33,528 nt of DNA, taken from positions 1 to 33,528 of IMG/VR virus record IMGVR_UViG_3300049141_000026; one strand, given 5' to 3'. The DNA comes from a virus. Lineage: Duplodnaviria > Caudoviricetes. Below, piece after piece: positions 1-33,409 of the stretch. The position numbers and the translations under genes are program-made. Below the pieces are notes generated by a model that did not search any database, had not been told where the DNA came from, and was given only the letters and a program-made list of their open reading frames with translations. Each line of letters opens with the position of its first letter. The stretch's first letter is position 1.

Positions 1-38
1 TCGCTGTGGCGTGGCTGATCTTCATGTGGCTGGTGTAG
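1..38 (+). CDS. 3' end of a small hydrophobic (membrane) protein, truncated by the window edge
   Basis: The frame from base 3 reads AVAWLIFMWLV*, with TAG at 36-38 abutting the helicase ATG at 39. Confidence 0.45.
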   Translation, partial: AVAWLIFMWLV

Positions 39-872
39 ATGCAGACGCTCTCCCGCTCCGTGACGCGGGGGGCAGTGGGCAAGGAGCCCCTGCCCCCCGC
101 TTTTGCGTCCTGGGAGGCACAGGGGATCAGGTTCCGGCGAGCGTCGGTCTCGATGCTCGCCGGGGTCCCCGGCTCCCACAAGACCCGCATCATGCTGAAC
201 GGCGTGGTGAACATGAGGGTCCCCACCTTGGCGTTCTCCACGGACAGCGACCAGGACACCATCGCCAGCCGGCTGCTGGCCATCAACACGCGCACCCCCA
301 CCTCCGAGACGGAGGACTGGCTGCGTACCGACCCGGACAAGTGCCGGCGCATCCTGTCGGGCTACGACTTCATGCGCTGGGAGTTCATGCCGAACCCGTC
401 CCTGGACGACGTCTGGCTGAGCGCGTACGCGTACCACGAGACCGAAGGCATCTGGCCTCACCAGATCGTGGTGGACATCGCCTCGGACATCGGTCACGAC
501 ACCGGAGACGAGTGGGGGTCCCTGCGAGACCTCATGCGCCAGTCAAAGGTGCTGGCCCGCGAGACGGAGGCGCACGTGCTGCTGGTGCACCACTGCGCCG
601 ACTCCGAGCGCACCAAGCGGCCGTGTCCACGGCGCTCCGACATTCACGGCAAGGTCGCCGCCATCCCGGAAGTGATCGTCACCTGCGGTGTCGATGGCAC
701 GGGCGGCCTGCACGCGGCGTGCGTGAAGAACCGGCACGCCAAGGCGAGCGCGGACGCCGACATCCGCATCCCCATGACGCTGGACGCTGCGACGTCCTTC
801 GTCGGGGACTACGTACCGAACGCACCCCAGCACTCGTACGCGAGCTGGGGTGGAGAGGATGGCTGGGCATGA
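39..872 (+). CDS. DnaB-like (RecA-fold, SF4) replicative helicase/ATPase
   Basis: Walker A GVPGSHKT, Walker B-like IVVD, motif VLLVHH and C-terminal CVKNRH (DnaB KxR arginine-finger motif). It lacks the DnaB N-terminal domain and lies upstream of the primase. Confidence 0.8.
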   Translation: MQTLSRSVTRGAVGKEPLPPAFASWEAQGIRFRRASVSMLAGVPGSHKTRIMLNGVVNMRVPTLAFSTDSDQDTIASRLLAINTRTPTSETEDWLRTDPDKCRRILSGYDFMRWEFMPNPSLDDVWLSAYAYHETEGIWPHQIVVDIASDIGHDTGDEWGSLRDLMRQSKVLARETEAHVLLVHHCADSERTKRPCPRRSDIHGKVAAIPEVIVTCGVDGTGGLHAACVKNRHAKASADADIRIPMTLDAATSFVGDYVPNAPQHSYASWGGEDGWA

Positions 873-1105
873 CCGGTCCCGAGCATTACCGCGAGGCGGA
901 GCGCCTGTTGGCGCTCGGCGAGACCATCAGCGAGCACGGCGGGGATCTGGGACAACTCCTGCCCGCCGCCCAGGTACACGCGACACTGGCCCTGGCTGCC
1001 GCGACCGCGATGAACGACGCGGGAAACGGCATGGCTCAGGTGGACTTCCTGGCGTGGGACAAGGTGGCGGGTGTGCCCCCGAAGGGTGTGACCGTCGATG
1101 ACTGA
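869..1105 (+). CDS. hypothetical phage protein (MTGPEHYREAERLL...AQVHATLALAAATA)
   Basis: ATGA overlap with the helicase stop and upstream GGAGAGG. It resembles a small-protein type common in actinophages. Confidence 0.75.
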   Translation: MTGPEHYREAERLLALGETISEHGGDLGQLLPAAQVHATLALAAATAMNDAGNGMAQVDFLAWDKVAGVPPKGVTVDD

Positions 1106-1295
1106 CCTCATCCTGAAGAAGCTCCGCATGGAGCACGCGGCGCTGGAGTACCGCGCCGAGCACCTGCGCACGCAGCAGCGCGCCGCCATCGCCACCAGCC
1201 CCCGGGCCGCCGCTTTGGGGCGGCAGATCAGGGAGACGCAGGCCCACGCGGACAGCTACGCCGCGCTCATCGAGAAGGCGGAGGAGATGCGGTGA
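1098..1295 (+). CDS. hypothetical coiled-coil protein
   Basis: 65-aa ORF overlapping its neighbours, with high-GC3 codons. Confidence 0.7.
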   Translation: MTDLILKKLRMEHAALEYRAEHLRTQQRAAIATSPRAAALGRQIRETQAHADSYAALIEKAEEMR

Positions 1296-1450
1296 AGGAG
1301 ATGCTGGACTTGATCCGGGACTTCATCGACCCGAACGGGTGCGAGTACGACCACCACGGGAGTTGCCAGACGCACGGCTGGACCACCACCGAGCCCGCAT
1401 GCCCCCACGCCAGGGCCAAGGCCCTCCTGAAGCGCCTGGAGGGCGAGTGA
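1292..1450 (+). CDS. small His/Cys protein (CEYDHHGSCQTHG...CPH), not in the ORF track
   Basis: GTGA overlap with the upstream stop, RBS GGAGGAG, 52 aa; it fills the gap exactly. Confidence 0.7.
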   Translation: MKEMLDLIRDFIDPNGCEYDHHGSCQTHGWTTTEPACPHARAKALLKRLEGE

Positions 1451-1620
1451 GGCGCCGCAGACCCCTGCTGGGGTGCCGCATCAGGCATCGCTGGTCGCGC
1501 TGGGCGTACGTGAAGGTGGACTACGCCGACGGCTACGAGCCCGAGCTGCGCGAGGACATGCAGTTCCGCATGTGCCGCCAGTGCGGCCACCAGGAGCTGC
1601 GAGAGCGGGTCGAGGCGTGA
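1447..1620 (+). CDS. small Zn-ribbon-like protein (C-x3-H...CRQCG)
   Basis: GTGA overlaps at both ends. Confidence 0.65.
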   Translation: MRRRRPLLGCRIRHRWSRWAYVKVDYADGYEPELREDMQFRMCRQCGHQELRERVEA

Positions 1621-2030
1621 GGGTCATCGTCACCGGTTCCCGTCGCTGGAGCGACAAGGCGGCCGTCTGGGACGCGCTGAACGACGTCTACCGGGAGTTC
1701 GGGCCCTTCGTGCTCGTCCATGGCGCCTGCTCCACGGGGGCGGACGCTATGGCACACGAGTGGTTCGAGGTAGCTGCTCGGCTCGTGCGGGTTGACGAAG
1801 ACCCGTTCAAGGTCACCAAGGCCGCCTGGGAGGCACGCGGCCTTAAGGCGGGACCCGAGCGCAATGAACGCATGGTCAAGGCCGGAGCGCAGCTCGTGCT
1901 GGCCTTCCTGGAGCCGTGCTCCAAGCCCCACTGCATCAAGCCCAAGCCGCATGACAGCCACGGCACCGCCGGTTGTGTGGACCTGGCCCGGAATGCGGGT
2001 ATCGAGATTCGGGAGATTCGTCATGGATGA
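1617..2030 (+). CDS. SLOG/YspA-like (DUF2493) nucleotide-binding protein
   Basis: Motifs RVIVTGSRRW, VLVHGAC-x-GAD, AGPERNERM and SHGT are typical of the YspA/DUF2493 SLOG family. GTG start at 1617 is coupled to the upstream stop. Confidence 0.8.
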   Translation: MRVIVTGSRRWSDKAAVWDALNDVYREFGPFVLVHGACSTGADAMAHEWFEVAARLVRVDEDPFKVTKAAWEARGLKAGPERNERMVKAGAQLVLAFLEPCSKPHCIKPKPHDSHGTAGCVDLARNAGIEIREIRHG

Positions 2031-2289
2031 ACCCCACTCCGGTCTGTCGCACGACCTGCCGGCGTACTACCCCAACGACCCGCCCCAGATTCCCTGGAGG
2101 CGGGTCAAGGTCTACAAGGGCATCCTCACTAACCGCTGGCGCTGGGCGCATGACTGCGCCACACACGAGACCGCATGCGGGCAAAGCTACGACTCCCACC
2201 TTCTCGCCCTGGTGGGCGGGCTGGAGCACGCCCGGCTCTGCCTGCGGGCAAGCGTCGTCATGAAGCTCCGGGAAAGGGGCGTGCTGTGA
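2023..2289 (+). CDS. hypothetical protein (MDEPHSGL...)
   Basis: ATG 2023 with GGGAG upstream; overlaps both neighbours. Confidence 0.6.
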   Translation: MDEPHSGLSHDLPAYYPNDPPQIPWRRVKVYKGILTNRWRWAHDCATHETACGQSYDSHLLALVGGLEHARLCLRASVVMKLRERGVL

Positions 2290-2693
2290 GCACCAAGTCC
2301 AAGGCCAAGGGCACGGCCGCAGAGCGGGAGGTGGTGCGCTACCTCCAAAACTGGTGGCCCGCCGCCGAGCGGCGCGCGCTGTCCGGCAACAAGGACAAGG
2401 GCGATGTCGCCGGCATTGCCGACCTGGTCGTGGAGGTCAAGGCGGCTGCCACGCAGCAGCTCGCGGCCTGGTGCCGCGAGACCTGGAACGAGATGGAGAA
2501 CGCGGGCGCGCACACCTGCGTGCTCGTGGTCAAGCGCCCGCACAAGAACGTGGCTCGGTGGGACGCATACGTACCCTACGTCCTGCTTCCTTGGGATTCC
2601 GGGGACAACGAAGGCGAGAAGGGGGCCGAACTGTGGGCTCGTATGGATCTCCGTCTCGCGGTGCTGCTCCTCTCCGAGGAGATGGGTTTCTAG
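2286..2693 (+). CDS. Holliday junction resolvase, Hjc-like PD-(D/E)xK nuclease
   Basis: KAKGTAAEREV...DKGDV...VVEVK signature; GTG start at 2286. Confidence 0.8.
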   Translation: MSTKSKAKGTAAEREVVRYLQNWWPAAERRALSGNKDKGDVAGIADLVVEVKAAATQQLAAWCRETWNEMENAGAHTCVLVVKRPHKNVARWDAYVPYVLLPWDSGDNEGEKGAELWARMDLRLAVLLLSEEMGF

Positions 2694-3049
2694 TCCCCAT
2701 CGCTCCCGTGCTCCAGCACTACGACGTGGAGCTGAACAACGTCCGCTGGGGCGAGGAGCAAGTCTGCTGCCCCGTCCACGGGGACCGACGCCCCTCGATG
2801 CGTGTCAACGCCGAGAAGGGCGTCTTCTTCTGCCACTCGTGCGGTGCCAAGGGCTCCGCCATCAACCTCATCATGCTCATGGAGGGCTGCGACCGTGCAG
2901 ACGCTCACGAACGCGCAGCGGCAATTCTTCGAGAGCGCGGCATCGACCTACCAGAGCGATCTCGCGGCCGATACCAGCGCCCAGGCGTATCTGGCGAAGC
3001 GGGGCTTCAGCCCACAGGACGCCGCTACGTTCCGCCTGGGCGTCGTTAA
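2633..3049 (+). CDS. DNA primase zinc-binding (CHC2) subunit
   Basis: CPVHGDRRPS...FFCHSCGAKG is a CHC2 zinc finger. The start is uncertain (GTG 2633 with AAGGGGG, or GTG 2708). Confidence 0.8.
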   Translation: MGSYGSPSRGAAPLRGDGFLVPIAPVLQHYDVELNNVRWGEEQVCCPVHGDRRPSMRVNAEKGVFFCHSCGAKGSAINLIMLMEGCDRADAHERAAAILRERGIDLPERSRGRYQRPGVSGEAGLQPTGRRYVPPGRR

Positions 3050-3578
3050 CCGCCCCCTGGTGGGCCACGAGGGCTACCGCGGGCGTCTGGTCATCCCGTA
3101 CCTGACGCCCGCCGGCGTGGTCAACATGCGATTCCGGTGCCTCAAGGATCACGTCTGCTCGAAGACGGTGATCTTCACCGACGAGAAGGGGAAGCCCGTC
3201 TACTGCCCCAAGTACCTGTCCATGGACGGGTACGAGTCCAATCTGTACAACGTCCTGGACCTGAAGAAGGACTCGCGCTTCATCGGCATCACCGAGGGCG
3301 AGCTGGACGCCATCGCGCTATCGGTCAGCGGCGTCCCCGCCGTGGGGGTGCCGGGGGTGGAGAACTGGCAAGACCACTTCTCCCGCTGCCTGGCGGACTT
3401 CGATGTGATCTACAGCTTCGCCGACGGCGACACCGCCGGGCGGAAGTTCTCCAAGTTCCTGGCCAGAGAGGCCAAGGCCAGGAAGGCCCCGATCCCGAAG
3501 GGCAAGGACGTCAACTCGATCTACCAGGAGGGAGGAGCCAGTGCAGTCAGGGCGCTCATCGATGCAGAAGTTTCGTGA
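2895..3578 (+). CDS. DNA primase catalytic TOPRIM subunit (DnaG-like)
   Basis: YLAKRG, RLVIPY, PKYL, ITEGELDA, FADGDTAG and KDVN motifs; GGAGG at 2881-2885 before GTG 2895. Confidence 0.85.
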   Translation: MQTLTNAQRQFFESAASTYQSDLAADTSAQAYLAKRGFSPQDAATFRLGVVNRPLVGHEGYRGRLVIPYLTPAGVVNMRFRCLKDHVCSKTVIFTDEKGKPVYCPKYLSMDGYESNLYNVLDLKKDSRFIGITEGELDAIALSVSGVPAVGVPGVENWQDHFSRCLADFDVIYSFADGDTAGRKFSKFLAREAKARKAPIPKGKDVNSIYQEGGASAVRALIDAEVS

Positions 3579-4026
3579 CCCTGTCCGCTCGTTCTTCAAC
3601 AAGATCTCCATGGGCGCCGGCTGCTGGGAGTGGCAGGCACAAAGGGACCGGAAGGGCTACGGCCGACTCAGCGTCGGCGGCAGGAAGGTCTTCGCTCACC
3701 GGTTCGCCTACGAGCTGTTCGTGGGACCGGCAGGCAATCTTCTCGTTTGTCACCGATGCGACAACCCTCGCTGCGTTCGCCCTGACCACCTCTTCGTCGG
3801 TACACACGCCGAGAACATGGCGGACATGAGGGCGAAGGGCCGCCCGGGGCCCAGGCGGCCATCCCCGACTCTCTGTCGGGCTGGCCATGACGACTGGGTG
3901 ATACGTCACCCGAAGAACCGCAAGTTCTCCCGGGAGTGCCGCACGTGCGCCCGCGAACGAAAGAGGAGGAGCTATGCCAAGCTCCACGGGAAATCGGATG
4001 CCGTCCGAGCCCTCATCGAGCAGTAA
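3541..4026 (+). CDS. HNH homing endonuclease (HNH_3-type with C-terminal Cys/His Zn motif)
   Basis: CWEW...GYG...AHRFAY...CHRCDNPRCVRPDHL...N motif, plus CRAGH...CRTC. Start is GTG 3541 (RBS GGAGG) or ATG 3562. Confidence 0.9.
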   Translation: MQSGRSSMQKFRDPVRSFFNKISMGAGCWEWQAQRDRKGYGRLSVGGRKVFAHRFAYELFVGPAGNLLVCHRCDNPRCVRPDHLFVGTHAENMADMRAKGRPGPRRPSPTLCRAGHDDWVIRHPKNRKFSRECRTCARERKRRSYAKLHGKSDAVRALIEQ

Positions 4027-4735
4027 CTGCGCTTGCAGTCACAGCCGCTTCCGGCACCAGGGGCCGGAGACGACCGACGGCAACTGCACGCACCCGGCGT
4101 GCGGCTGCATGGAGTACCGCGCCCGGGTCGTGGACGTGCCCCTGCCAGCGCCGCACTCGTGCCGCAACTGTGAGGACATCGACCCCGAGAGCTGCCTGTT
4201 CAACAGGCCCTGCGAGCACCCCAACGCCGAGTACCTGGGCAGCATCAGCGGCGCCGGCCAGCCGAAGACCAAGCGCTTCCACTGCCCGGAGTGCGACGAG
4301 CGCTACCAGGTGCAGGAGGAGCCGCCGAAGTGCCGCTGGCCGTCCTGCTTGACCAAGGAACAGCAGGGCGAGCTGGCGAAGGAAGTGACTCGCCAGATGC
4401 TGGGCGAGGAGCCCTCGCCCCCGCCTCCAGACCAACGCCTGGTCTGTGGCTGCGTCGAGCCGGAGACCGCCTGCGCCCACTGCGGAGGCGCGCACCCCTG
4501 GGACGCCTGTGCGGCGTACGAGGAGGCGGTGAAGGCCGACGTCCCGCCCCAGCCCGAGCGCCGTCCCCCGTACGCCGTGGCGTACAGCGCCGGGGGCCAC
4601 GCCTACGAGGTGCTGCTGCCCGGCGACGCCAGGGCGGAGGCCGTGGACGGCCGCCTCATCATCGAGCACCCCGGGCTCCAGGTGCTCGGCATCACGCGCG
4701 TCCAGCCCGTACGAACGGAGAACAGCGATGGCTGA
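3974..4735 (+). CDS. Cys-rich multi-zinc-motif hypothetical protein
   Basis: RBS GAGGAGG before ATG 3974; several CxC, CxxC and CxxCxxxH clusters. Confidence 0.7.
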   Translation: MPSSTGNRMPSEPSSSSNCACSHSRFRHQGPETTDGNCTHPACGCMEYRARVVDVPLPAPHSCRNCEDIDPESCLFNRPCEHPNAEYLGSISGAGQPKTKRFHCPECDERYQVQEEPPKCRWPSCLTKEQQGELAKEVTRQMLGEEPSPPPPDQRLVCGCVEPETACAHCGGAHPWDACAAYEEAVKADVPPQPERRPPYAVAYSAGGHAYEVLLPGDARAEAVDGRLIIEHPGLQVLGITRVQPVRTENSDG

Positions 4736-4880
4736 CACCGAGAACGAGACCAACGCCCGCCAGCACATCCGCATCGCGCTGGCGGAGCTGATCGAGGACC
4801 GCGAGCACGAGCACAGCCGCAAGGACATCAAGGCGTTCCTGGACTCCGAGCTGGAGCACGCCATGGGGGATGCGGCATGA
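4728..4880 (+). CDS. hypothetical protein (MADTENETNARQHIRIALAELIEDR...), not in the ORF track
   Basis: RBS GGAG, 50 aa, overlaps both neighbours. Confidence 0.65.
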   Translation: MADTENETNARQHIRIALAELIEDREHEHSRKDIKAFLDSELEHAMGDAA

Positions 4881-5089
4881 GCGCCTGGGCGCGGCTGGTG
4901 AGCTGGGACGGCTCGGACGAGTTCCTGGAGCTGTGCAGCGCCGCCCTGGTCGAGGTGAAGACGGAGCATGCCCGGCGGCTGGCAAAGCAGATCCGATCGG
5001 CAGTGCCGCCCGGCATCACGACGGGCAGCCCGTACACCAGTGGGCAGATGTTCGCAGCCGACCTCATCGACCCGGAGGTGTCGGCATGA
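4877..5089 (+). CDS. hypothetical protein
   Basis: ATGA coupling at both ends; ends AADLIDPEVSA. Confidence 0.7.
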   Translation: MSAWARLVSWDGSDEFLELCSAALVEVKTEHARRLAKQIRSAVPPGITTGSPYTSGQMFAADLIDPEVSA

Positions 5090-5418
5090 CGCTGTCCATG
5101 AAGATGTTCAAGGACAAGGTCCGTTTCGAGTGGACCGACGGCGAGGTTGAGTCCGTCGTGTCCCTCACGGCGGAGGACTCCGAGGAGTCCGCGCTGCGCA
5201 AGCTCAAGCGGGTCATCGCCCTGGTAGAGGGCGGCAGTGAGACGGGGCGGGCTGTGCAGAAGTACCTGGAGGCACTGCCGCGCCCCGCCGGGGCGACGCT
5301 GAACGTCGCTGCTGCCCCGCAGCCCACGAATGGCTGGGCGGCCGTCTACGGCCCTCCTAAGCCGCCGGAGCACTGGGAGGGTCAGGTGGAGATCGTGAAG
5401 CCCGGGGAGGACGCGTGA
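5086..5418 (+). CDS. hypothetical protein (MTLSMKMFKDKVRFEW...)
   Basis: GGAGG RBS and ATGA coupling at 5086. Confidence 0.7.
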   Translation: MTLSMKMFKDKVRFEWTDGEVESVVSLTAEDSEESALRKLKRVIALVEGGSETGRAVQKYLEALPRPAGATLNVAAAPQPTNGWAAVYGPPKPPEHWEGQVEIVKPGEDA

Positions 5419-5663
5419 CGGAGAACCCCGCCCGCAGCGCTGCGTACAGTGCCCTCATGTGGCCCAAGCGCAATTGCAACGGCGACCACAACATGAACGC
5501 CGACGCGGCCAATGCCCTGCTTGACGCCTTCGCCCACGAGCTGGCGGAGAAGCAGCGGCGATGGGCGCGAGGCCAGCACTGGGTGACCTCGCTGGAGCTT
5601 GCGGCAGCGGATCATGTCGCCGATCTGATCGACCCGGAGAAGGAGGGCAGCGATGGCCGCTGA
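5415..5663 (+). CDS. hypothetical protein
   Basis: GGAGG RBS and GTGA coupling; contains AHELAEK...ADLIDPE. Confidence 0.7.
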   Translation: MTENPARSAAYSALMWPKRNCNGDHNMNADAANALLDAFAHELAEKQRRWARGQHWVTSLELAAADHVADLIDPEKEGSDGR

Positions 5664-5877
5664 CCGCGAGTGGTTCACGATCGAGAAGCCGAACGGCGCC
5701 TGGGTCGACAGCAAGGAGTACCCGAACAAGGAGGCTGCCGCGCAGGCAGCCAGGCTCCTTGCTCCGGAGTGCAACGAGCGCCTGACCGTCGTGAAGTACA
5801 CCCGCAAGGAGGTGCGCACCTTCACGCCGACGATCTCCATTACCGAGGCGGACGTAGGCACGGTCACCCCGGCATGA
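5653..5877 (+). CDS. hypothetical protein, last gene of the + operon
   Basis: AAGGAGG RBS, 74 aa. Confidence 0.7.
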   Translation: MAADREWFTIEKPNGAWVDSKEYPNKEAAAQAARLLAPECNERLTVVKYTRKEVRTFTPTISITEADVGTVTPA

Positions 5878-5990
5878 GAGAATGGCAGCTCCCTCTCCAT
5901 AGGGAAGCTGCTCCGTCCGGGCCGGCTGATCCCCGGCCCACCTCTCTCGGAGCACGCAGAAGCCCCCGGCCTTCGGGCCGGGGGCTTTTC
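5878..5990 (+). ncRNA. candidate 3'-UTR-derived antisense sRNA (two-loop)
   Basis: Hairpin 5885-5911 has loop CTCCAT and hairpin 5919-5939 has loop CTGATCC, followed by the terminator. The loops are complementary to those of the repeated early leaders. Confidence 0.45.
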
Positions 5991-5992
5991 TT
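5960..5992. terminator. rho-independent terminator between convergent operons (probably bidirectional)
   Basis: AAGCCCCCGGCC-TTCG-GGCCGGGGGCTT followed by TTCTT, with a C(UUCG)G tetraloop. Confidence 0.9.
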
Positions 5993-6037
5993 GCGTTTGC
6001 CCACCTTTCGGCGTGCTGCCTCGAACAGAGTAGCGAA

Positions 6038-6283
6038 TTACTGCATGAGCTGGAAGACCCCGGCACTGCCGGCCGTGCCGACGGCCGCAGCGGCCATACT
6101 CAGCTTCCAGACCTGGGCCTGCAAGGCGGTGAACTTCACCTTCAGCTCGCCCAGCTCGCGCTCGACCGTGGCAGTGCGCTGGAGCGAGGTGTCCAGCCTG
6201 CCGTTCAGCTTGGCGAAACCCTCATTCACGGCGCCTCTGAGGTCCGCCAGGGCTACCGCCACCGCTCCTGTCTCGTCGTTCAC
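6038..6283 (-). CDS. coiled-coil protein with hydrophobic C-terminus (lysis-cassette membrane protein)
   Basis: GTG 6283 is coupled to the holin stop; heptad-like central part and an apolar tail. Confidence 0.65.
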   Translation of the reverse strand: MNDETGAVAVALADLRGAVNEGFAKLNGRLDTSLQRTATVERELGELKVKFTALQAQVWKLSMAAAAVGTAGSAGVFQLMQ

Positions 6284-6459
6284 GCAGCCGCCTTGCGCTT
6301 GTTGACCACCCAGGACTTCAGGGCGGCCAGGACCAGCGCCAGGGGCGCTGCCCACCAGACGGGCACCTCGGCGAGCGAGGTCACGGCGACGGCCAGGGCT
6401 GTCTCGGCGCCGGTCCAGCCGGAGCGCTCCGCGATGTCCAGGTACTGCTTCAGTTCCAT
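6280..6459 (-). CDS. holin-like membrane protein (MELKQYLDIAERSGWT...WWAAPLALVLAALKSW), not in the ORF track
   Basis: 59 aa with two hydrophobic segments, an ER..WT N-terminal motif like actinophage r1t-type holins, a basic tail and RBS GAGGGAG. Confidence 0.7.
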   Translation of the reverse strand: MELKQYLDIAERSGWTGAETALAVAVTSLAEVPVWWAAPLALVLAALKSWVVNKRKAAA

Positions 6460-6461
6460 GT

Positions 6462-6695
6462 CTACTCCCTCAGTGATGGGGGCCGGAGGCGGTCCAGCGC
6501 CTCGGCTGTGGCCCGGTCCAGGACGCCTGTCACCGGGAGCTTTGAGTACTGCTGCAAGGCCCGCAGATGGGCCTTGGTGGCGTCATCCATCTCGCCCGTC
6601 TCGTCCAGCAGGAGCGCCCGCTGCACGACGCGGATGGACTCGCGCTCGGAGTCGTTGGCGGGGGCGATGATGACGCGCTCGGGGGGCCAGGTCAT
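6462..6695 (-). CDS. stand-alone peptidoglycan-binding (PG_binding_1-like) protein
   Basis: IRVVQRAL...TGEMDDATKAHLRALQ...LPVTGVLDRATAEAL matches the three-helix PGBD pattern. ATG 6695 overlaps the nozzle stop. Confidence 0.7.
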   Translation of the reverse strand: MTWPPERVIIAPANDSERESIRVVQRALLLDETGEMDDATKAHLRALQQYSKLPVTGVLDRATAEALDRLRPPSLRE

Positions 6696-8611
6696 GACGT
6701 GATCACATCCGCGATGGTCCGCAGCTCCACCCACAGGACTCCGCCTGTGGAGCTGTCGTTGGCGTTCGGTGAGGTCTTCTGCTCGAAGCGGTAGTCATCG
6801 ATGACCACCAGATATGACGTGCCGCTGCGCAGGTTCTGGAGGGTGACCGCGTCACCCCGGGCGAAGTGCTGCTCGAACGCCTCCAGGCGGGCCAGGGAGC
6901 GCCCTTCCCGGCCGACCGTCTGGCCGGAGCGGTCCTTCTCCCGGTCGAAGCAGAGCAGCGGCAGCGTGAAGATCCGCTGACGGATGGCGCCCGGCATGGC
7001 CTTGAGCTGCCAGCCGTTGACCTCACCGCCCTGGGTGGTGTCGGTGCTGGAGCGGGTGAGCGAGATCTTGAGCTGTACCCACTCGACCGCGGTCGTGGGC
7101 GCGGTCATGACCACGTCCTCGATGGCCAGGGACGAGCCCTGGGAGACGGTGATGATGGAGGTGTCGGCCCCTCCGGGGTCGATGGCGGAGACGGCCACGG
7201 AGCCCATGAGGCTCCCGGGTGTCTTCACGCTGATGAACTTGTAGATCTTCTTCTCCAGGGTGTTGTAGCGCACCCTGCCCGTCTTCAGGTAGCCGCTCGA
7301 CTCCTTGACCGTGGCGGACTCCAGATAGGAGCCCTGGCCCACCACCGCCAGGACCATGCGGTTCGAGGTGCCGAAGTTCGTCACCGCGCAGACCTCGCCA
7401 GTGACGTGTGCCTGGAGGTCCGTGGCGTACGCGTACCGCACCGACGGGGTCACCCCGTTGTCCTGGATCGGCTGGCCCAGGTCCACCCGGTACAGGCCGC
7501 TGGAGCCGTCGATGGCGTTCGTCGCCCCGACGAAGAAGAACCGGTCATAGGCGGCCACGGCCTTGACGCCGTTGCTGTTCTCGATGAGCAGCGGGCCGTA
7601 CCTGAGGTCGCCGTTGTCATCGATCTCGCCGACGCGGAAGCCGCGGGAGGTGCCGATGCCGACGAAGGCGCCGAGATAGGTCGTCATCGAGTAGACGACC
7701 TCTCCGCGGGGGAGCTGGGCGGCGAGGACGCCGCCGCTCGCCAGGGTGGGCACGTTGCCGCTCGTGTCCAGCACGAACTTGTAGATGTCCGACTGGCTGC
7801 CGGCGTAGCCGGATGCGTAGATGGCGTTGGTGCCCTCGGCGATGTCCGTCCAGACCCACGCCGAGTTGAGGTGCGTGAACTTGGCGACCGGCAGGGCCGG
7901 GCCGCCTACGGCCAGCTCGTACACCGACGCACCGATGCCCGCCATCAGGCGGCCCTTGGCCCAGCGCACCACGGTGTTGGCAGAGCCGGTGTTCCACAGC
8001 AGCGCTCCGGCGCCGTTGCCGGCGCCGCGGTAGATGCCGACGTTGTCGGCGGCGTAGTAGTTCGTGCCGTCGCTCGTCAGGCTCCTGATGGTGTTGGCGC
8101 CGCCCCACGTGATGGTGGTGGTGGCGCTGCCTGTGTCGGACTTGAGCACGTTGCCGACCGCGGACCAGTAGCGGTCCGTGCCGTCGTTCCAGCCCACCAG
8201 GTGGTGCTTGTCCGCGGTGCCGTCGGCGATGCGCTGGGAGGTCTCGCGGAGCAGGGTGAGCTGGCCGTTCACCCACGGGTTCACGCCCACGGACTCGCCG
8301 AAGCGGATGGCGTACTGGTTGTCGGAGGCCGGGTCCTGGTAGAGGAGCCCGGCCCCGCCGATGAAGGACTGCTGCGAGCGTAGCCACCATCCGGCCAGCG
8401 ACTGCTCGCCGGGGATCTGCTGCTGGTCGATCTGCTCCTTGCGGACCGGGGCTCCGCCCCGGGTCATCACGTGCTCGTTGTCAACCTTCAGCAGCCACGG
8501 CATGCCCGCCAGGGCAACGTCGTACTGCACGCCATCCAGGGCGTAGCTGGAGGACGTGGTGGCCGTGCGCCCCGACAGGGCGAAGGGCAGGCGGGAGACG
8601 ATGCCAGCCAC
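6692..8611 (-). CDS. tail nozzle / tail tubular protein B-like (beta-propeller)
   Basis: 639 aa, beta-rich repeats; sits after the adaptor and fibre in podovirus gene order. Confidence 0.6.
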   Translation of the reverse strand: MAGIVSRLPFALSGRTATTSSSYALDGVQYDVALAGMPWLLKVDNEHVMTRGGAPVRKEQIDQQQIPGEQSLAGWWLRSQQSFIGGAGLLYQDPASDNQYAIRFGESVGVNPWVNGQLTLLRETSQRIADGTADKHHLVGWNDGTDRYWSAVGNVLKSDTGSATTTITWGGANTIRSLTSDGTNYYAADNVGIYRGAGNGAGALLWNTGSANTVVRWAKGRLMAGIGASVYELAVGGPALPVAKFTHLNSAWVWTDIAEGTNAIYASGYAGSQSDIYKFVLDTSGNVPTLASGGVLAAQLPRGEVVYSMTTYLGAFVGIGTSRGFRVGEIDDNGDLRYGPLLIENSNGVKAVAAYDRFFFVGATNAIDGSSGLYRVDLGQPIQDNGVTPSVRYAYATDLQAHVTGEVCAVTNFGTSNRMVLAVVGQGSYLESATVKESSGYLKTGRVRYNTLEKKIYKFISVKTPGSLMGSVAVSAIDPGGADTSIITVSQGSSLAIEDVVMTAPTTAVEWVQLKISLTRSSTDTTQGGEVNGWQLKAMPGAIRQRIFTLPLLCFDREKDRSGQTVGREGRSLARLEAFEQHFARGDAVTLQNLRSGTSYLVVIDDYRFEQKTSPNANDSSTGGVLWVELRTIADVITS

Positions 8612-8615
8612 AGGC

Positions 8616-9812
8616 TTACTCCTCTACCGCGACCCAGTCGCACGTGATGGCCAGGGTGCGGCTGGCGCCGCCCGTGTCGTTGCAGCGCAGCGTCATGCCG
8701 CTGGCCGTCACCGCGCTGGCGCGGACGATGAGCGCCGACGAGCCGGCCGGCAGGCTCGTGAGCGTGGCCACGACCTTGGGTGCGGCGGAGAAGCGGCTGG
8801 CGGGGAAGGAGACGGCGACGTCCACCTGGGACGTGGCGCTGAAGTTGAAGGTGGTCGAGCCGGTGGCGAAGGCCGGGACGTTGGCGGCCGTTAGATCGCC
8901 CGTGACCACGAGATTCTGCGCCACGTGCAGGTTGTCGTCCGTCTTGAGCGTGTTCGCCGCACTGCGGTACAGGTTGGTGTCCAGGGTGAACGACGAGCCG
9001 TCGCCCCAGGCTATGGTGCCGTTGGCTTCCAGCAGGTACCTGATGCCGGCGTCGCCGGAAACGCGGGTCTGGAGCACGTCGTCCCCGGCCGCGGACCGGG
9101 TGAAGCGCAGGGCGTCCTCCGTGCCCAGGACGCTGGCCGCCTCGCGGTACAGGATCGTGTCGGCCGCGGCATTGCCCGGCCCCCACTGGAGCTGGCCATC
9201 GGCGCGCACCTGGAGGCGCGGCGTGGAGTCGCCGGAAATTCGGTGGCTGGAGGCCACCGTGGCGGCAGCAGCGCCCTGGAAGACGGGGTTGCCGGTGAAG
9301 ACCGGCGCCCCGGTGAAGTTCCAGGCGCCGGAGGTGGTGCCCGCGCCGCTGAAGGTCGGCGTGCCGGAGAAGGTGCCCGCCATGCTGCCGCCGTTGGCGT
9401 ACGCGGCGTTGTTGATCGTCGGGCTGGTGAGCGTCTTGTTCGTGAGCGTCTGCGTCATGGTGGCGCCCACCAGGTCGCCCGTGACGCCGTGCACACCCGA
9501 GGCGGCAGCCTCATGCGTGCGAAAGTCCGTCGCGTCGCCAGCGTGGTACACGTGGCGCACCACGGCGCCCAGGCTGTGGCTCTGGGCGCTGGTGCCGCTG
9601 TGCCCTCGCGTGACGGTGAGCGTGGTACCCGCCGCCGCGGTGACCACGACCAGCTCCTCTGTGGCGCCGCCGTAGTCGAGCGCCAGCACGTACGGGAAGG
9701 ACCCGGGAAACCCGGTGGTGGCGCCCACGCCGATGGAGGTAGCGCCGGCAGAGACGGACCCCGACAGGGTCGTCTGCTGGGCCAGGTTCGAGTAGAAGTA
9801 TGCGTTCGCCAC
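8616..9812 (-). CDS. tail fibre/spike protein
   Basis: Gly/Ala/Thr-rich, with TQTLTNKTLTSP, two repeats of WG.G....DT.LYR and a C-terminal lectin-like beta domain. Confidence 0.7.
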   Translation of the reverse strand: MANAYFYSNLAQQTTLSGSVSAGATSIGVGATTGFPGSFPYVLALDYGGATEELVVVTAAAGTTLTVTRGHSGTSAQSHSLGAVVRHVYHAGDATDFRTHEAAASGVHGVTGDLVGATMTQTLTNKTLTSPTINNAAYANGGSMAGTFSGTPTFSGAGTTSGAWNFTGAPVFTGNPVFQGAAAATVASSHRISGDSTPRLQVRADGQLQWGPGNAAADTILYREAASVLGTEDALRFTRSAAGDDVLQTRVSGDAGIRYLLEANGTIAWGDGSSFTLDTNLYRSAANTLKTDDNLHVAQNLVVTGDLTAANVPAFATGSTTFNFSATSQVDVAVSFPASRFSAAPKVVATLTSLPAGSSALIVRASAVTASGMTLRCNDTGGASRTLAITCDWVAVEE

Positions 9813-9814
9813 GG

Positions 9815-10723
9815 TCAGCTCCCCTGGAAGGTGGCGTAGTTCGGCGTCTCGGCGAACTGCCTGTCACGCTCGCGCTGGAGCCCTTCGGCGTACAGCGCCG
9901 CGTAGGTCTGCACGGCCTGCTGGACGTCCCGCGTGGACACGAGCTGGGCCCGCTCCGTGGACTCCACGGAGGACTGCTGGAGGCGTGCGGAGAGCACGCC
10001 GGGCAGGAGTCGCTTGCAGGCGTCCCAGACGACCAGATCGGCCACCCGCTCGGGGTAGCCGGTGACCGTCTCGAAGTCGTCGCTGCCGGCGGACAGGGTG
10101 GCCGGCGGCTTGGTGTAGACGACCCTGATGTTCTGTCCGGGCGTGACGCCGTCGAAAAGCTGGATGGACTTACCCGTGGGGAAGTCGGAGGTGTACGCCT
10201 GCGGGTTGTACCGCCAGTTGGGCATGGGTGCGGAGACCTTCTCCGGGCCGACCCAGCGGCCCACCACGTACCAGACGCCCCGCGCCGCCGCGGGCAGCGG
10301 GTACTCGACCTGGGCGGCGTTGTACGCGAAGTCCGTCGTGGCGAAGATCTCCAGCGACGGGTACAGGCCCGTGATGGCGTCGTTGATGCGGTCCTTGATG
10401 GTCTGCCGTGGGAAGGCCGGCGCGCTCGTGACGAGAGCGTTCGCAGCGTGACTCGTGGCCGTGGTGCCCTCGCGGCCACGTCCGTTGGTCAGGCCCAGGA
10501 CAGCCACCTGCCCGCTGGTCATGTCCACCGACTTGACCAGGATCAGCTCGTCATCGATCTCGCACAGACCCCGGGAGACCCGCTCCGCCGTGGCGGTGTC
10601 CACGGTGAAAGACGTGTCATCCGCGTCCATGGGAGCTGCCAGCTCGGACATGGACTCCTGGTCCAGCGTGAAGCCGCGCAGCTCCTGCCGGACCCGCGTA
10701 ACGAGCTGATCGAAGGTCGGCAT
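9815..10723 (-). CDS. head-tail adaptor / tail tubular protein A-like
   Basis: 302 aa downstream of the capsid, with INDAI...LYP and VVYTKPP patterns. The call rests on synteny. Confidence 0.55.
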   Translation of the reverse strand: MPTFDQLVTRVRQELRGFTLDQESMSELAAPMDADDTSFTVDTATAERVSRGLCEIDDELILVKSVDMTSGQVAVLGLTNGRGREGTTATSHAANALVTSAPAFPRQTIKDRINDAITGLYPSLEIFATTDFAYNAAQVEYPLPAAARGVWYVVGRWVGPEKVSAPMPNWRYNPQAYTSDFPTGKSIQLFDGVTPGQNIRVVYTKPPATLSAGSDDFETVTGYPERVADLVVWDACKRLLPGVLSARLQQSSVESTERAQLVSTRDVQQAVQTYAALYAEGLQRERDRQFAETPNYATFQGS

Positions 10724-10724
10724 G

Positions 10725-11009
10725 TCAGGACGCCTCGGGCATGGGTGCGGCGGCGGAGAAGTCGTGCCCGTAGGCGGCCCCGGCCTGCTCGCTGGCCTTC
10801 AGAGCCGCCATGACCTTGGGCCGGGTGGTCCCGTCGGGCTGAATGCCCTGCGCCCGTGCGGAGCGGTACAGGGCCAGGTCGCTGTCCCAGCGCTTCTGCT
10901 CGGTGGCGTCACCGCCGCCGATGCCGCAGTAGGCGACGCGCATGTTGGCCGCGCGGGCGCACTCGCCCCACGTGGCGTGGTCCTGCGTCGGGCAGCCGGT
11001 GCGGCACAT
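10725..11009 (-). CDS. conserved-looking hypothetical virion-region protein (CRTGCPTQDHATWGEC)
   Basis: 94-aa ORF tightly packed in the operon. Confidence 0.7.
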   Translation of the reverse strand: MCRTGCPTQDHATWGECARAANMRVAYCGIGGGDATEQKRWDSDLALYRSARAQGIQPDGTTRPKVMAALKASEQAGAAYGHDFSAAAPMPEAS

Positions 11010-11140
11010 CAGTGCAGCTCCCCATCCTGCGCACCCTCGGTGCGCACCGGGATCTGCACGCAGTGGTCCAGGCAGTCCTGCTCGTTGCCGTTGGTAATGG
11101 TGCTGTTGCCGCCCTGGGTGGTCGGCTGGCAGTTGTCCAT
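11009..11140 (-). CDS. small hypothetical protein (MDNCQPTTQGGNSTITNGNEQ...), not in the ORF track
   Basis: 43 aa, GAGGG RBS, TGATG coupling to the next gene. Confidence 0.55.
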   Translation of the reverse strand: MDNCQPTTQGGNSTITNGNEQDCLDHCVQIPVRTEGAQDGELH

Positions 11141-11147
11141 GTCGCCC

Positions 11148-11420
11148 TCACAAGGCGGTGAAGTTGGCTTCCGTGACGCTGACGCCGCCCGCTATCAGGG
11201 CGGCCTTGGTGTCGTCGTCCACGACGTACTCATGGCCGCCGATGTACGCGACCGTTGCCGCTGCGATCTCGTCCTCAGTCGGGTAGCGCACCGCGACATA
11301 CGTGCCGCTGCGGTTGAAGATGGTGATCCCGCGAGCGAGCTTGTAGAACCGCATGAGCCTGCTGCCCGGGACGGCCGGACCCTCATCAACCGATGGGGTC
11401 CGGAACGTCCACTCAGCCAT
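11148..11420 (-). CDS. hypothetical virion-associated protein
   Basis: 90 aa immediately after the major capsid gene. Confidence 0.7.
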   Translation of the reverse strand: MAEWTFRTPSVDEGPAVPGSRLMRFYKLARGITIFNRSGTYVAVRYPTEDEIAAATVAYIGGHEYVVDDDTKAALIAGGVSVTEANFTAL

Positions 11421-11421
11421 C

Positions 11422-30030: not shown

Positions 30031-30166
30031 GGAAGGATCTTTCATCACAACCACGATCTTGGTCGCTTCAACCCTCAACAGACAATCGTTCGAGCTAAGG
30101 CAACCCTCATCAGTGCAGGTCAAGCCGGGTACGAAAAAAAACTTCGAGAATGTTTCCCTGAACCCC

Positions 30167-30196
30167 TTGACCACGATCGTGGTCAGAGCGCAGTCT
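30167..30196 (+). promoter_or_regulatory. host sigma70/HrdB-type early promoter overlapped by an 18-bp palindrome
   Basis: TTGACC-N18-CAGTCT, an upstream A-tract, and TGACCACGATCGTGGTCA at 30168-30185. Confidence 0.55.
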
Positions 30197-30609
30197 TGGA
30201 CCACGCCGCAAGGGAGCACCGGAAACGGGAGCAACCGGGCGGAGTCGAGGAATCTGAACGTGCCCGCCTTCACGGGTTGTTCACAGACCTCACAACCGCA
30301 GAGCATGGCCCCGTTGGACCAGCAGCCGCTGACAAGTCACGGGCAGGGCGCCAGGACATGGCGCGGAGCATCAGGCGCGGCTTTCAGTCGCAGACAAGCT
30401 CCGTGGGCACAGGTGGCGTTCCGTAGGGACTCAGAGCCCTACGGACGATGACGGGCAGTCTGTTGCCCGTCACTCGTCATGCGGGCAGGGGTGCAACCCC
30501 ATTCGCTCGGGATGAGCTGGACGCATGCTCGGTATCCCTGCCCGCTTGATGAGTAACCATCATGATCATTGCCGGTTGTGCCGGCACACCAGGAGAGGGG
30601 TATTTGATC

Positions 30610-30819
30610 ATGGACGTACAGCAGCACACCGAGGATGGCACCACGTACACCGTGGGACAGCGCGTCCAGCGCGTGGACTGGGAGAACGACGGCACGCCCG
30701 CCTATCAGGGCACGCTGGAGCGCATCGAGTTGGACGCGGGGGAGGCGTACTACTGGATTCGCTGGGACGGCACGCCCGCCGCAGACCATCACGGGCCGTA
30801 CGCGTTCCGGATCATCTGA
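30610..30819 (+). CDS. small beta-barrel (SH3-like) hypothetical protein
   Basis: RBS GGAGAGG; YTVGQRV...GTL...YYWIRWD pattern. Confidence 0.7.
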   Translation: MDVQQHTEDGTTYTVGQRVQRVDWENDGTPAYQGTLERIELDAGEAYYWIRWDGTPAADHHGPYAFRII

Positions 30820-30937
30820 GCCTGTAAGAGCCATCGAGCACCCGGACATGTGCCGGGTGCTCCCTTGGTTCCGCAGTCCAGCGGGACACGCCCGACCGAT
30901 CATCGGGCGTCCGATCGGCCTTGGAGAGGGACTGATC
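30820..30937 (+). promoter_or_regulatory. repeated structured intergenic leader, copy A
   Basis: Long stem with hairpin GAGCACCCGG/CCGGGTGCTC, hairpin CGCCCGA-CCGATCA-TCGGGCG, and an SD hairpin containing TTGGAGAGGG. Confidence 0.7.
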
Positions 30938-31420
30938 ATGATGCAGTTCGAGAGTGATGACACGGCAATTCTGCGTGTGCTGAACGCGCTAAGCGAGGGC
31001 GAGATCATCGACCACGGTACGGCGCGTGCCATTGCGTCGCAGTACAACGAGCCGGGCGTCTGCGAGTCGTTCGTGTCGACCGGCGCCATCCCGTCCGGCG
31101 AGGAGGGGGACAGCTCCACCCTGATCTACGCCCTCTTTGAGGGCACGGCGGAACACCCGGACTACGGGCTTCGCGCGGCGCGCGCCCTGGAAGAGTACAT
31201 CGAAGATCGCTTCGAGGCCGGCGACTGCGCACCCGTGCCCGGGTGGTCGGGCATGTGGGTCACGAAGCACGTGGACTACCCGCACGAGCCGGGGCGCCTG
31301 TATGACTGCTTGGCATGCGAAGCGGAGTGCTTCTGCAACCCGGGCGTCGGCTGGTCGCCGGATCTCAATGTCACGCCGTGCGTGTACTGCGCTGAGCAGA
31401 TGGACGCATTCGAATCCTGA
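30938..31420 (+). CDS. hypothetical acidic protein with C-terminal H-x-DYPH...C-xx-C...C-x-C...C-xx-C motif
   Basis: ATG 30938 follows leader A. Confidence 0.7.
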   Translation: MMQFESDDTAILRVLNALSEGEIIDHGTARAIASQYNEPGVCESFVSTGAIPSGEEGDSSTLIYALFEGTAEHPDYGLRAARALEEYIEDRFEAGDCAPVPGWSGMWVTKHVDYPHEPGRLYDCLACEAECFCNPGVGWSPDLNVTPCVYCAEQMDAFES

Positions 31421-31529
31421 TTTATCCGCCAGAGCATCGGGCGCATCCCCAACGGGGTGCGCCCCCTTGCTCTTACGGATGAGAGCACCGGCACTGATCA
31501 TGCCGGCAGATCTCTTGGAGAGGGAGATC
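31421..31529 (+). promoter_or_regulatory. repeated structured intergenic leader, copy B
   Basis: ATCCG..AGAGCA/TGCTCT..CGGAT stem, CCGGCA-CTGATCA-TGCCGG, and GATCTCTT-GGAGA-GGGAGATC-ATG. Confidence 0.75.
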
Positions 31530-32042
31530 ATGAACAGCAGCGACAACGAGCGCACGGGCGTCACGCGCGGATTCACCACGGACGCCAATGGCAACCACGA
31601 CCGCACTCCGGTGCTCGTGATTGACGGCACGGGCGAGCGCTACCGGCTGGTGCCGTTCGCGGGCCCCGTGATCGATTCGGGCTACGTGCTCGCCCAGAAC
31701 GCCCACACGGGCGTCAAGGTTCGTGAGCGGTACCAGACGGGCACCGACAACGGCGAGCACATCGCGTGGCGTGTGGATGGCTACGAGTGGCGGGGGTTCA
31801 AGGGGTACATGGTCCGTACCGAGGACCGGGGGCACGGCATCGTTGCCGTTTATGTCAAGGGCCCGGCCAGTGACATCAAGGGCATCGAGCGGGCCAGCCG
31901 CGCTTACGCCAAGACCCTGACGTTCGCGCCGGGCATGAAGCCCGGTGCGGTGGGTGGAGGCGGCGAGTTCACCGACGCGGGCGCCACGTACATCAGCCAG
32001 GACGTCCACCTGACGAAGCCGCTGCCCAAGCGCGAGGACTGA
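31530..32042 (+). CDS. hypothetical protein (MNSSDNERTG...)
   Basis: ATG 31530 follows leader B; 170 aa. Confidence 0.7.
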   Translation: MNSSDNERTGVTRGFTTDANGNHDRTPVLVIDGTGERYRLVPFAGPVIDSGYVLAQNAHTGVKVRERYQTGTDNGEHIAWRVDGYEWRGFKGYMVRTEDRGHGIVAVYVKGPASDIKGIERASRAYAKTLTFAPGMKPGAVGGGGEFTDAGATYISQDVHLTKPLPKRED

Positions 32043-32159
32043 CGCATCCGCCGGAGTGCCGGGCCGACTCACCGCGGTGAGTCGTGCCCGTGCTCTTACG
32101 GATGAGAGCACCCCGGGATTGATCCCCCGGGGCCTGATCTTCATGGAGAGGGAAGATCA
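32043..32159 (+). promoter_or_regulatory. repeated structured intergenic leader, copy C
   Basis: Shares TGCTCTTACGGATGAGAGCACC with copy B; CCCCGGG-ATTGATCC-CCCGGGG; TGATCTTC-ATGGAGAGG-GAAGATCA. Confidence 0.75.
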
Positions 32160-32423
32160 ATGAGCATCGAGACCACCAGCACCGCCGTAGCCGGTACGGA
32201 ATGGACGGTACGCAACCGGTACGAGACCACGGACGGCGACCGCGTTGCCCTGCTGTATCTGTACGGCCCGGAGGTGGACCGCTTCGCCGTGTCCTACTCC
32301 TACGCATGGCCGCACTCGCCCCAGTTCATCGAGTACGCGGAGCGCGTGGACGCGATCACCGCCTTCGTCCGGAGCCTCAACTACGCCGACCGTCGCGGCG
32401 TCGTGGCACACCGGGAGGGCTGA
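32160..32423 (+). CDS. hypothetical protein
   Basis: 87 aa after leader C. Confidence 0.7.
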   Translation: MSIETTSTAVAGTEWTVRNRYETTDGDRVALLYLYGPEVDRFAVSYSYAWPHSPQFIEYAERVDAITAFVRSLNYADRRGVVAHREG

Positions 32424-32824: not shown

Positions 32825-32953
32825 CCCTGTCGGCCCAAGCCGAGCGCATCCCGTCCACCCCCGGGGTGCGCTCCCTTGGTCTTGCAGATCAGGACCACAC
32901 CGCCGACTGATCATCGGCGGCGCAGCAACTGCCTTTGGAGAGGGGCAGCAGTC
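32825..32953 (+). promoter_or_regulatory. repeated structured intergenic leader, copy D
   Basis: GAGCGCATCCCG/CGGGGTGCGCTC hairpin, CCGCCGA-CTGATCA-TCGGCGG, and CTGCCTT-TGGAGA-GGGGCAG. Confidence 0.75.
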
Positions 32954-33409
32954 ATGCAGCACATCATCGGACGTGTCTGGTACGGCACGGGACAGTACGC
33001 ACAGCGCACCCTGAGCCCGGGTGAGTGGGCCACGGAGATGCTGATCAGCCGGCAGGGCGGTGAGACGTCGTACCGGTGGACCGGAGAGGACCGGAACGGC
33101 GCGCGCCTGCACGTCGTGTGGATCACCGACCCCAAGGACATTGCGACGCTCATCGCGTTCGAGTTGTCGCTGGAGCCGACCGCCACCAACACCCAAGAGC
33201 GCCTGGAGCGCGAGTTGCTTCGACTCGACAGGGAGTACGAGCGTGCCATGGGGCACAACGCGTTCCTGTACGCCGACCGCGGCAAGGACATGGGCCCCGG
33301 CGCGTACCACTTCACGGAGGGCCGCGTCATGGTCGGCGTGCGCAACGCCCTGGTGCACATGAAGACCCTCATGCACGACCTGGCCACCGAGCTGGAAGGG
33401 AGCAAGTGA
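32954..33409 (+). CDS. hypothetical protein (MQHIIGRVWYG...)
   Basis: ATG 32954 follows leader D; 151 aa. Confidence 0.7.
   Translation: MQHIIGRVWYGTGQYAQRTLSPGEWATEMLISRQGGETSYRWTGEDRNGARLHVVWITDPKDIATLIAFELSLEPTATNTQERLERELLRLDREYERAMGHNAFLYADRGKDMGPGAYHFTEGRVMVGVRNALVHMKTLMHDLATELEGSK

Follow-up and report, generated by a model that had tools for sequence, protein, structure and literature searches.

A candidate double-loop small RNA in a Streptomyces podovirus genome, complementary to its repeated early-gene leaders

To our knowledge, two-loop antisense repressors of phages are known from only a small number of enterobacterial phages, in each of which a single operon is the target. The C4 RNA of P1 and P7 is described as placing one loop on a ribosome-binding site and using another for specificity, with a few base changes in the RNA and its target defining immunity groups (PMC5320573; PMC12197685), and the CI RNA of P4 as a small RNA that pairs with two sites in the early transcript and keeps lytic genes off (PMC4825925). 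In Staphylococcus aureus, C-rich loops of RNAIII are reported to contact the 5′ UTR and the ribosome-binding site of rot mRNA, both contacts being needed for repression (PMC2837412), and the 6C sRNA of high-GC Gram-positive bacteria is reported to bind mRNA in an actinobacterium through C-rich loops without a chaperone (PMC6486639). A review of phage sRNAs contains no occurrence of the word Streptomyces, and our literature search, mostly without subscription papers or supplements, found no description of the element presented here.

This element lies in a viral sequence of 33,528 nucleotides (IMG/VR record IMGVR_UViG_3300049141_000026; "the window" denotes this whole stretch), between the last gene of the middle operon and a terminator. 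It is real, conserved and partly co-evolving. We consider it reasonably probable that it encodes an accessory trans-acting sRNA that kisses and masks the Shine-Dalgarno (SD) loops of early genes, blocking their translation. An initial annotation had proposed a plus-strand RNA pairing in trans with repeated early leaders; the loops kept in relatives, the co-variation and the target ranks support this part of the proposal, and not the part by which the RNA would originate from read-through only.

The genome and the element at the end of its middle operon

The window is the whole of a linear virus record that is 73% complete, and its sequence is that of an incomplete Streptomyces podovirus genome, related to cluster BF; the portal protein is 50–52% identical to portals of cluster BF Streptomyces podoviruses (29 of 31 matches are Streptomyces phage records). 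The terminase, portal, head and tail genes all lie on the minus strand. The plus strand carries the early region (30.5–33.5 kb), then, after a gap of about 12 kb in the record, the last part of the middle operon, with a SLOG protein, a RusA-like resolvase and a primase (2802–3578; 63% identity with a Toprim protein of G001, a near-complete relative). ORF 3137–3829 was considered as the primase frame and rejected. The 25 kb said to separate the element from the leaders proved to be an artefact of contig permutation; the leaders lie upstream on the same strand, 17.6–19.3 kb off in G001. No tRNA genes occur in the whole record; phage Manuel has a cluster of 19 in its structural arm.

A nucleotide search of positions 1–12000 against GenBank phages gave no match, and closer kin were drawn from viral contigs, genomes and metagenomes. 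Serine recombinase domains were found in 8 of 20 records and in 7 of 15 near-complete ones, and tyrosine integrases in none of the 20 records searched. G001 encodes a large serine integrase. This protein (L116 8512–10572, minus strand; 686 aa) has a C-terminal match to the DUF4096 (IS4/5-type) domain. Another relative, G025, is a prophage that interrupts a host amino-acid permease gene (L196 4965–5387 / L197 13508–14668), its attachment site sitting between the early and middle regions. Because relatives carry serine recombinases and G025 is integrated in a host gene, we regard the clade as temperate, unlike cluster BF, for which two accounts report no lysogeny genes and no repressor or integrase (PMC11536984; PMC13097060).

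The features at the end of the middle operon are as follows.

5653..5877, plus strand: final gene in the middle (replication) operon; product of 74 aa, without a family match
5875..5883, plus strand: predicted −10 element with TG extension (TG-n-GAGAAT) that overlaps the last middle gene's stop codon; transcription predicted to start at ~5890
5890..5992, plus strand: predicted small RNA, ~103 nt (start 5885 if read through from upstream); homologues aligned
5890..5905, plus strand: hairpin 1 with anti-SD loop CTCCAT, extending to 5885–5911 in the read-through form; CCTCTCC(A) loop kept in relatives
5919..5939, plus strand: hairpin 2 with specificity loop CTGATCC, which co-varies with leader loops
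5940..5947, plus strand: second anti-SD strand ACCTCTCT, a single-stranded bulge closed by 5910–5915 / 5948–5953
5958..5992, plus strand: intrinsic terminator with UUCG loop (stem-loop 5958–5989), at the convergence with the late operon

The product of the last gene has a homologue in G001 (31% identity, E 5e-5), where it also precedes the element. Both hairpins of the initial annotation are present as it described them, hairpin 1 with arms 5885–5894 and 5901–5911 around loop CTCCAT (5895–5900) and hairpin 2 with arms 5919–5925 and 5933–5939 around loop CTGATCC (5926–5932). It had overlooked the anti-SD strand at 5940–5947, which offers the best single sites on SD sequences, as well as a fifth leader (SD 30592, ATG 30610) and a −10-like hexamer at 5878–5883. 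The fold of 5885–5992 has a z score of −4.8, or −2.6 without the terminator (3 of 200 shuffles were as good). No Rfam family reached its gathering score in the window or in the loci of four relatives. An ATG is conserved downstream of the hexamer; the small peptide that it would begin was discounted on inspection by eye, since reading frame and length vary (6 codons in the window).

The hexamer lies six bases before the first helix. Among 21 such hexamers, hand-picked by eye, all have A at position 2 and T at position 6, and the first helix begins at +5 to +9, mostly at +7. TG extension is found in 10 of 11 hexamers beginning with C or G and in none of the 10 that begin with T. TANNNT is reported as the Streptomyces −10 motif, present at 80% of start sites (PMC4895711). 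The predicted early promoter of this phage family uses CANNNT as its −10. A fixed hexamer rule, derived from these same elements in related sequences, holds at 18 of the 20 junctions that carry the element and at 5 of 17 scored as lacking it, one of the five (L029) in fact carrying the element. Most hexamers overlap the stop codon, the exceptions being those of G019, G023 and L191. No −35 consensus was found upstream of the hexamers, and a consensus promoter scanner found no promoter for the element.

The conserved −10-like hexamer suggests a discrete sRNA of about 5890–5992 rather than only read-through. The annotation had held that the RNA arises only from transcription that reaches the far end of the replication operon, and here the fixed distance of the hexamer suggests instead that it has its own promoter. 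Alternatively, the RNA could be a lytic timer, existing solely at the 3′ end of the replication-operon transcript, or as a 3′ fragment processed from it, and turning early genes off after middle transcription. The same complementarity would serve this purpose equally, the extended hairpin 1 (5885–5911) can form only in a read-through RNA, there is no −35, and the element occurs in G010, which has no integrase match, and is absent from four integrase-bearing genomes. However, the −10-like hexamer stands at a fixed distance (18/20 versus 5/17) and the minimum free energy structure of 5885–5992 leaves 5885–5889 unpaired, and we consider such a timer unlikely. Because the clade is temperate, expression in a lysogen is as plausible as a lytic timer. 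Since the predicted promoter needs no upstream transcript, we lean towards a site of action in the lysogen or on superinfecting kin rather than in late lytic growth, and view the read-through timer as the weaker of the two timing models.

Strand assignment draws on several measures. The first helix has 21 G·U against 9 A·C when read on the plus strand, and the U tract and UUCG loop of the terminator face the same way. Neither of two tests over the whole element favours the plus strand: the minus strand folds to lower energy in 14 of 20 cases, and a symmetric stem count gives 19 G·T versus 28 A·C, with a positive control that was non-significant. It is worth asking if the element is an inverted leader copy working, or once working, on the minus strand, which reads a GATC loop and then a GGAG loop and folds as well or better. 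We judge this very unlikely, because the stems are common to other 3′ elements and not to leaders, the leaders' long 5′ hairpin has no counterpart, and an ATG at a leader-like distance from the minus-strand SD opens three codons only; moreover, the first helix favours G·U on the plus strand, to which the hexamer and the U-tract terminator both point.

Repeated early leaders and predicted targets

The repeated early leaders of the initial annotation exist, their count being five rather than four once leader Z is added.

30167..30196, plus strand: predicted early promoter TTGACC, 18 nt, CAGTCT, which would feed the leader array
30470..30612, plus strand: leader Z (fifth), with long conserved hairpin, GATCA stretch, SD GGAGAGG at 30592, ATG 30610
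30820..30940, plus strand: leader A, loop CCGATCA 30896–30902, SD loop 30922, ATG 30938
31421..31532, plus strand: leader B, loop CTGATCA 31494–31500, SD loop 31516, ATG 31530
32044..32162, plus strand: leader C, loop ATTGATCC 32118–32125, SD loop 32144, ATG 32160
32825..32956, plus strand: leader D, loop CTGATCA 32907–32913, SD loop 32936, ATG 32954

The form of the early promoter is common to G001, G002, G003 and G026 (4 of 9 relatives scanned), and palindromes differ between relatives. In the window, a 14-bp palindrome lies within the promoter spacer (30170–30183), with a near copy 120 nt upstream (30050–30063); both are probably repressor operators.

Leaders are laid out as a long bulged hairpin, then a barcode hairpin, then an SD hairpin. 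The long bulged hairpins make up the 5′ halves of leaders A to D (30820–30885, 31421–31487, 32044–32110 and 32825–32898), and in A, B and D the 3′ arm was seen to be able to refold into a short terminal hairpin. These long hairpins may resemble RNase III sites, and they could be processing sites at which the early transcript is cut into protected single-gene mRNAs. Leaders B and D include terminator-like stems, which leaves room for a termination effect. None of the five early proteins fell into a PHROG family, and four scanned in Pfam gave no match (two of them scanned as longer open frames).

The SD sequence TGGAGAGG occurs on the plus strand at 851, 30922, 31516, 32144 and 32936 and on the minus strand at 5899 only. 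The copy at 851–858 (plus strand) is likely the SD of a gene inside the long open frame 2–1105, and is a good single site for the bulge. The 11-nt complements that the annotation had noted to leaders B and C are exact, although 4–5 of the bases belong to the stem of hairpin 1 and not to its loop. The loop-loop complementarity with the leaders is also real, but the first loop of leader C (ATTGATCC) forms only 4 bp with loop 2. Because GATC is palindromic, loop 2 could, in the window genome alone, represent identity and not complementarity; a 5-bp GATC match arises for 4% of random loops. With a palindromic loop 2, and an anti-SD strand that pairs with many start regions, the case from the window genome alone is thin.

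All five leaders rank near the top of two target scans, as had been expected of them, although the energies are modest and unrelated sites score alike. A two-site accessibility scan of both strands with loops 1 and 2 places leaders A–D at ranks 8, 9, 1 and 12 of 650 windows; the same type of scan with the bulge and loop 2 (start 5890) places A–D and Z at 10, 4, 2, 7 and 1 of 643. Several competitors in the two-site scan lie on the untranscribed strand of the late region, and for leaders A and C the best second site is other than the first (L1) loop itself. In co-folding from 5890 with 36 start regions, the five leaders rank 1, 2, 4, 6 and 11. From 5885 they rank 2, 4, 9, 14 and 18, a mean of 9.4 versus 22.8 for dinucleotide shuffles, none of 60 of which did as well. 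The co-folding window for leader D was one base off, and scan energies leave kissing geometry aside. The predicted duplexes cover 11 bp over the SD and extend further, at modest energies of −7.5 to −11.6 kcal/mol. The middle gene starting at 5415 comes 1st or 3rd in co-folding, on a par with the leaders.

Conservation and co-variation among relatives

Of 41 junction regions, 23, the window included, have an anti-SD element in the same place, scored as an unpaired CCTCTCC that follows the last middle gene and precedes the terminator; four of the 41 came without an automatic terminator, and two of these were read separately. Junctions that lack it have nothing or one unrelated hairpin, the latter in G005, L004, L019, L020, L022, L023 and L033. 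Between the nearly identical phages L022 and L023, the loop of this single junction hairpin is reverse-complemented. G007 has, between tail-end +863 and +1293, an inserted extra gene with a second terminator, which separates the element from the late operon.

Across relatives the stems of the element vary and the loops stay, and the first helix has two-sided changes at 4 of 10 predicted consensus pairs (10 sequences). In the core that these elements share, a hairpin precedes an unpaired (A)ACCTCTCY strand, around which an outer stem closes; in the window this core is 5910–5953, and the module CCGG-(A)ACCTCTCY is kept in G002, G003, G007, G013, G019, G020, G025 and G026. The fixed double-kiss geometry originally proposed is not universal, some relatives being without loop 2 or having other loops; the anti-SD strand is what forms the conserved core. 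One pattern scan of viral contigs returned 14 loci, one of them G001, and a second returned 6, all on contigs already in the set. The convergence element was not located in G006, G008, G014 and G018.

A second anti-SD hairpin, on a long stem, stands at the end of the early region in G001, G002, G003, G004, G007, G009, G011, G015 and G025; the window ends before this site. Its loop follows the local SD, being CCTCTCC where leaders read GGAGAGG. In the lytic BF phages Manuel, Immanuel3, FlowerPower and WRightOn, the leader SD is GGGAGAGAG and the internal loop CTCTCTCC(C), in 4 of 4 genomes. The stems of the internal hairpin are compensated in these lytic phages. Sites of the internal hairpin include G001 33546, G003 30856, G004 935, G025 ~84580, L001 38100, L202 2446, L203 2084 and L204 2388, and it often stands just before a gene's own SD hairpin, after several hairpins with C-rich loops. 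Judged by sequence, anti-leader pairing looks like a family trait and the 3′ element like an accessory one, the latter because the integrase-bearing G005, G009, G011 and G016 lack it and G010, without an integrase match, has it.

Ten genomes have both a second loop and early leaders, and in seven of them loop 2 fits the genome's own leader loops. The comparison uses core loops; automatic extraction of leader loops gave no result for 4 of 42 leaders and took the wrong hairpin once (G004). In G000, G001, G023 and G027, both sides have GATC-type loops that form 4.8–5 bp. In G003 and G007, the element has TTCATCAC against GTGATGAG or TGATGAA in the leaders, unpaired in 3 of 3 leaders each; the cognate duplexes are of 8 bp (G003) and 7.7 bp (G007) versus about 4 bp across types, with a chance of 0.0016 for a random loop. 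In G002 an additional TTAATCAC loop stands against TGATT, unpaired in 2 of 2 leaders. One helix position reads G-C, C-G or A-U across genomes. The G003/G007 and G002 loops are non-palindromic and include U·G wobble, which fits RNA pairing and not DNA identity. In a quick tail-protein tree, from which G018 was left out, the GATC genomes form one clade (support 99) and G003/G007 fall within another; hence the co-variation amounts to about two independent events.

These loops could also be protein-binding or DNA-level sites, the 3′ element then being a decoy or second site and not an antisense partner. Protein sites are often near-palindromic and so are the GATC and GTGNCAC loop cores, and within the window's clade loop 2 and the leader loops have nearly the same sequence. 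We nevertheless regard this as quite unlikely, since the elements of G003, G007 and G002 are the complement, with wobble, and not a copy of non-palindromic leader loops, and the anti-SD strands are complements in every genome.

The match between loop and leader fails in three instances. G026 and G013 have a CATC-type loop that forms only 3 bp with their own leader loops, GTGCCA or CGGCAT, and leaders complementary to the G010 loop TGAACTAC, predicted blind, were not found in that genome; the expectation of co-conservation is thus borne out in seven of ten genomes and contradicted in G013, G026 and G010. An extra ACTGCCTC loop in G026 and G013 fits GAGGCAG after their SDs (a post hoc match). 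G004, G025 and G019 have no loop 2. The G010 leaders share another motif, CTACTCCGAA before the SD, and the third-hairpin loops of G010 and L191 carry GTAG, complementary to it (G010 9503–11341 and 27847; again post hoc). Barcode loops read GTGCCAC in G004, G005, G025 and G026 versus GTGGCAC in G011 and G014, all copies having changed together. A search of 11 genomes for hairpin loops complementary to TGCCA/TGGCA leader loops gave one clear intergenic case, in G014 (38236).

The CATC-type loops of G013 and G026 do fit the leaders of G003 and G007, at 8 and 7.3 bp, far better than the 3 bp formed with their own. The RNA might accordingly be aimed mainly at other phages of the family, as a heterotypic superinfection block that matches its own leaders only in some, and its patchy presence is like that of an accessory gene. 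However, 7 of 10 genomes match their own leaders, and the mismatches could equally stem from mosaic exchange of the early region; a primary role of this kind seems highly improbable. We give still less credence to the view that the element is a structured 3′ filler, stabilising or insulating the transcript end, with complementarity due to chance. Other relatives do have a single unrelated hairpin at the junction, and the 5-bp GATC match has a chance of 0.04, but the anti-SD strand is kept while stems change, G003 and G007 have an 8-bp match, and 0 of 60 shuffles beat the leader ranks.

Proposed mode of action and comparison with known systems

From the structure, conservation, complementarity and co-variation of the element, we infer a promoter, expression, binding and repression that would operate as follows. 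A host-type −10 promoter of its own would drive a discrete sRNA of about 5890–5992 in the direction of the early strand, with the intrinsic terminator as its end. Two C-rich single strands, loop 1 and the bulge 5940–5947, would dock on the exposed GGAGAGG loop of each leader, and loop 2 would check specificity by docking on the GATC-type loop upstream; the pairing could lengthen into a duplex of 11–16 bp over the SD sequence. Translation of up to five early genes might in this way be blocked at once, with the sRNA as an accessory to a protein repressor acting at the early promoter. Any such pairing in G025 must be in trans, because the prophage is integrated between its early and middle regions.

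A broader proposal, which we offer only tentatively, is that the family uses an RNA-only silencing code, in which each early gene stands behind a standard processed leader with a barcode loop and an SD loop peculiar to the phage, and the barcode is read by modular anti-leader RNAs. These RNAs would be the promoter-driven sRNA at the convergence and the anti-SD hairpin at the end of the early region, the latter kept even in lytic BF phages. If this were true, an exchange of loop alleles would set up immunity groups defined by RNA, and prophages would be able, through mismatched loops, to silence related phages.

Should the sRNA reading hold, a single RNA controls an array of repeated leaders for which natural loop-swap alleles exist. 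The anti-SD hairpin in 4 of 4 BF genomes offers a direct hypothesis for early-gene shut-off without a known repressor, and orthogonal sRNA-leader pairs are potential switches for Streptomyces engineering.

Like C4, the element is predicted to be a phage trans-acting RNA with a loop for the ribosome-binding site and a variable specificity loop (predicted pairing in 7 of 10 genomes). Unlike C4, it has no Rfam match and no C4 fold, C4 being absent even from the weak Rfam matches. C4 is cut from a precursor by RNase P, whereas the window RNA has a predicted promoter of its own (start ~5890) and a terminator; and C4 controls an antirepressor operon, whereas the window RNA would act on five repeated structured leaders in an actinobacterial host. 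With P4 CI it shares small size, a phage origin and, by prediction, pairing with two sites on an early transcript. However, CI is processed from the transcript that it controls, between seqA and seqC, and acts by premature termination, whereas elements of the window type lie far from the leaders (17.6–19.3 kb downstream in G001; across the attachment site in G025) and would mask SD loops.

The closest geometric match is RNAIII on rot mRNA, with two loop-loop contacts made by C-rich loops, although RNAIII is chromosomal and large and has many unrelated targets, without a co-evolving array of repeated leaders. The binding of mRNA by 6C without a chaperone makes chaperone-free kissing plausible for a phage sRNA. 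Unlike the phage element, 6C is a host RNA whose loops carry C runs; the phage loops read CCUCUCC, fitted to their own GGAGAGG, and have no Rfam match. On present sequence comparison, the phage element is not a member of the C4, CI, RNAIII or 6C families. What it has in common with sRNAs of the RNAIII/6C type is a mechanism and not a family, namely unpaired C-rich strands complementary to the SD of the target.
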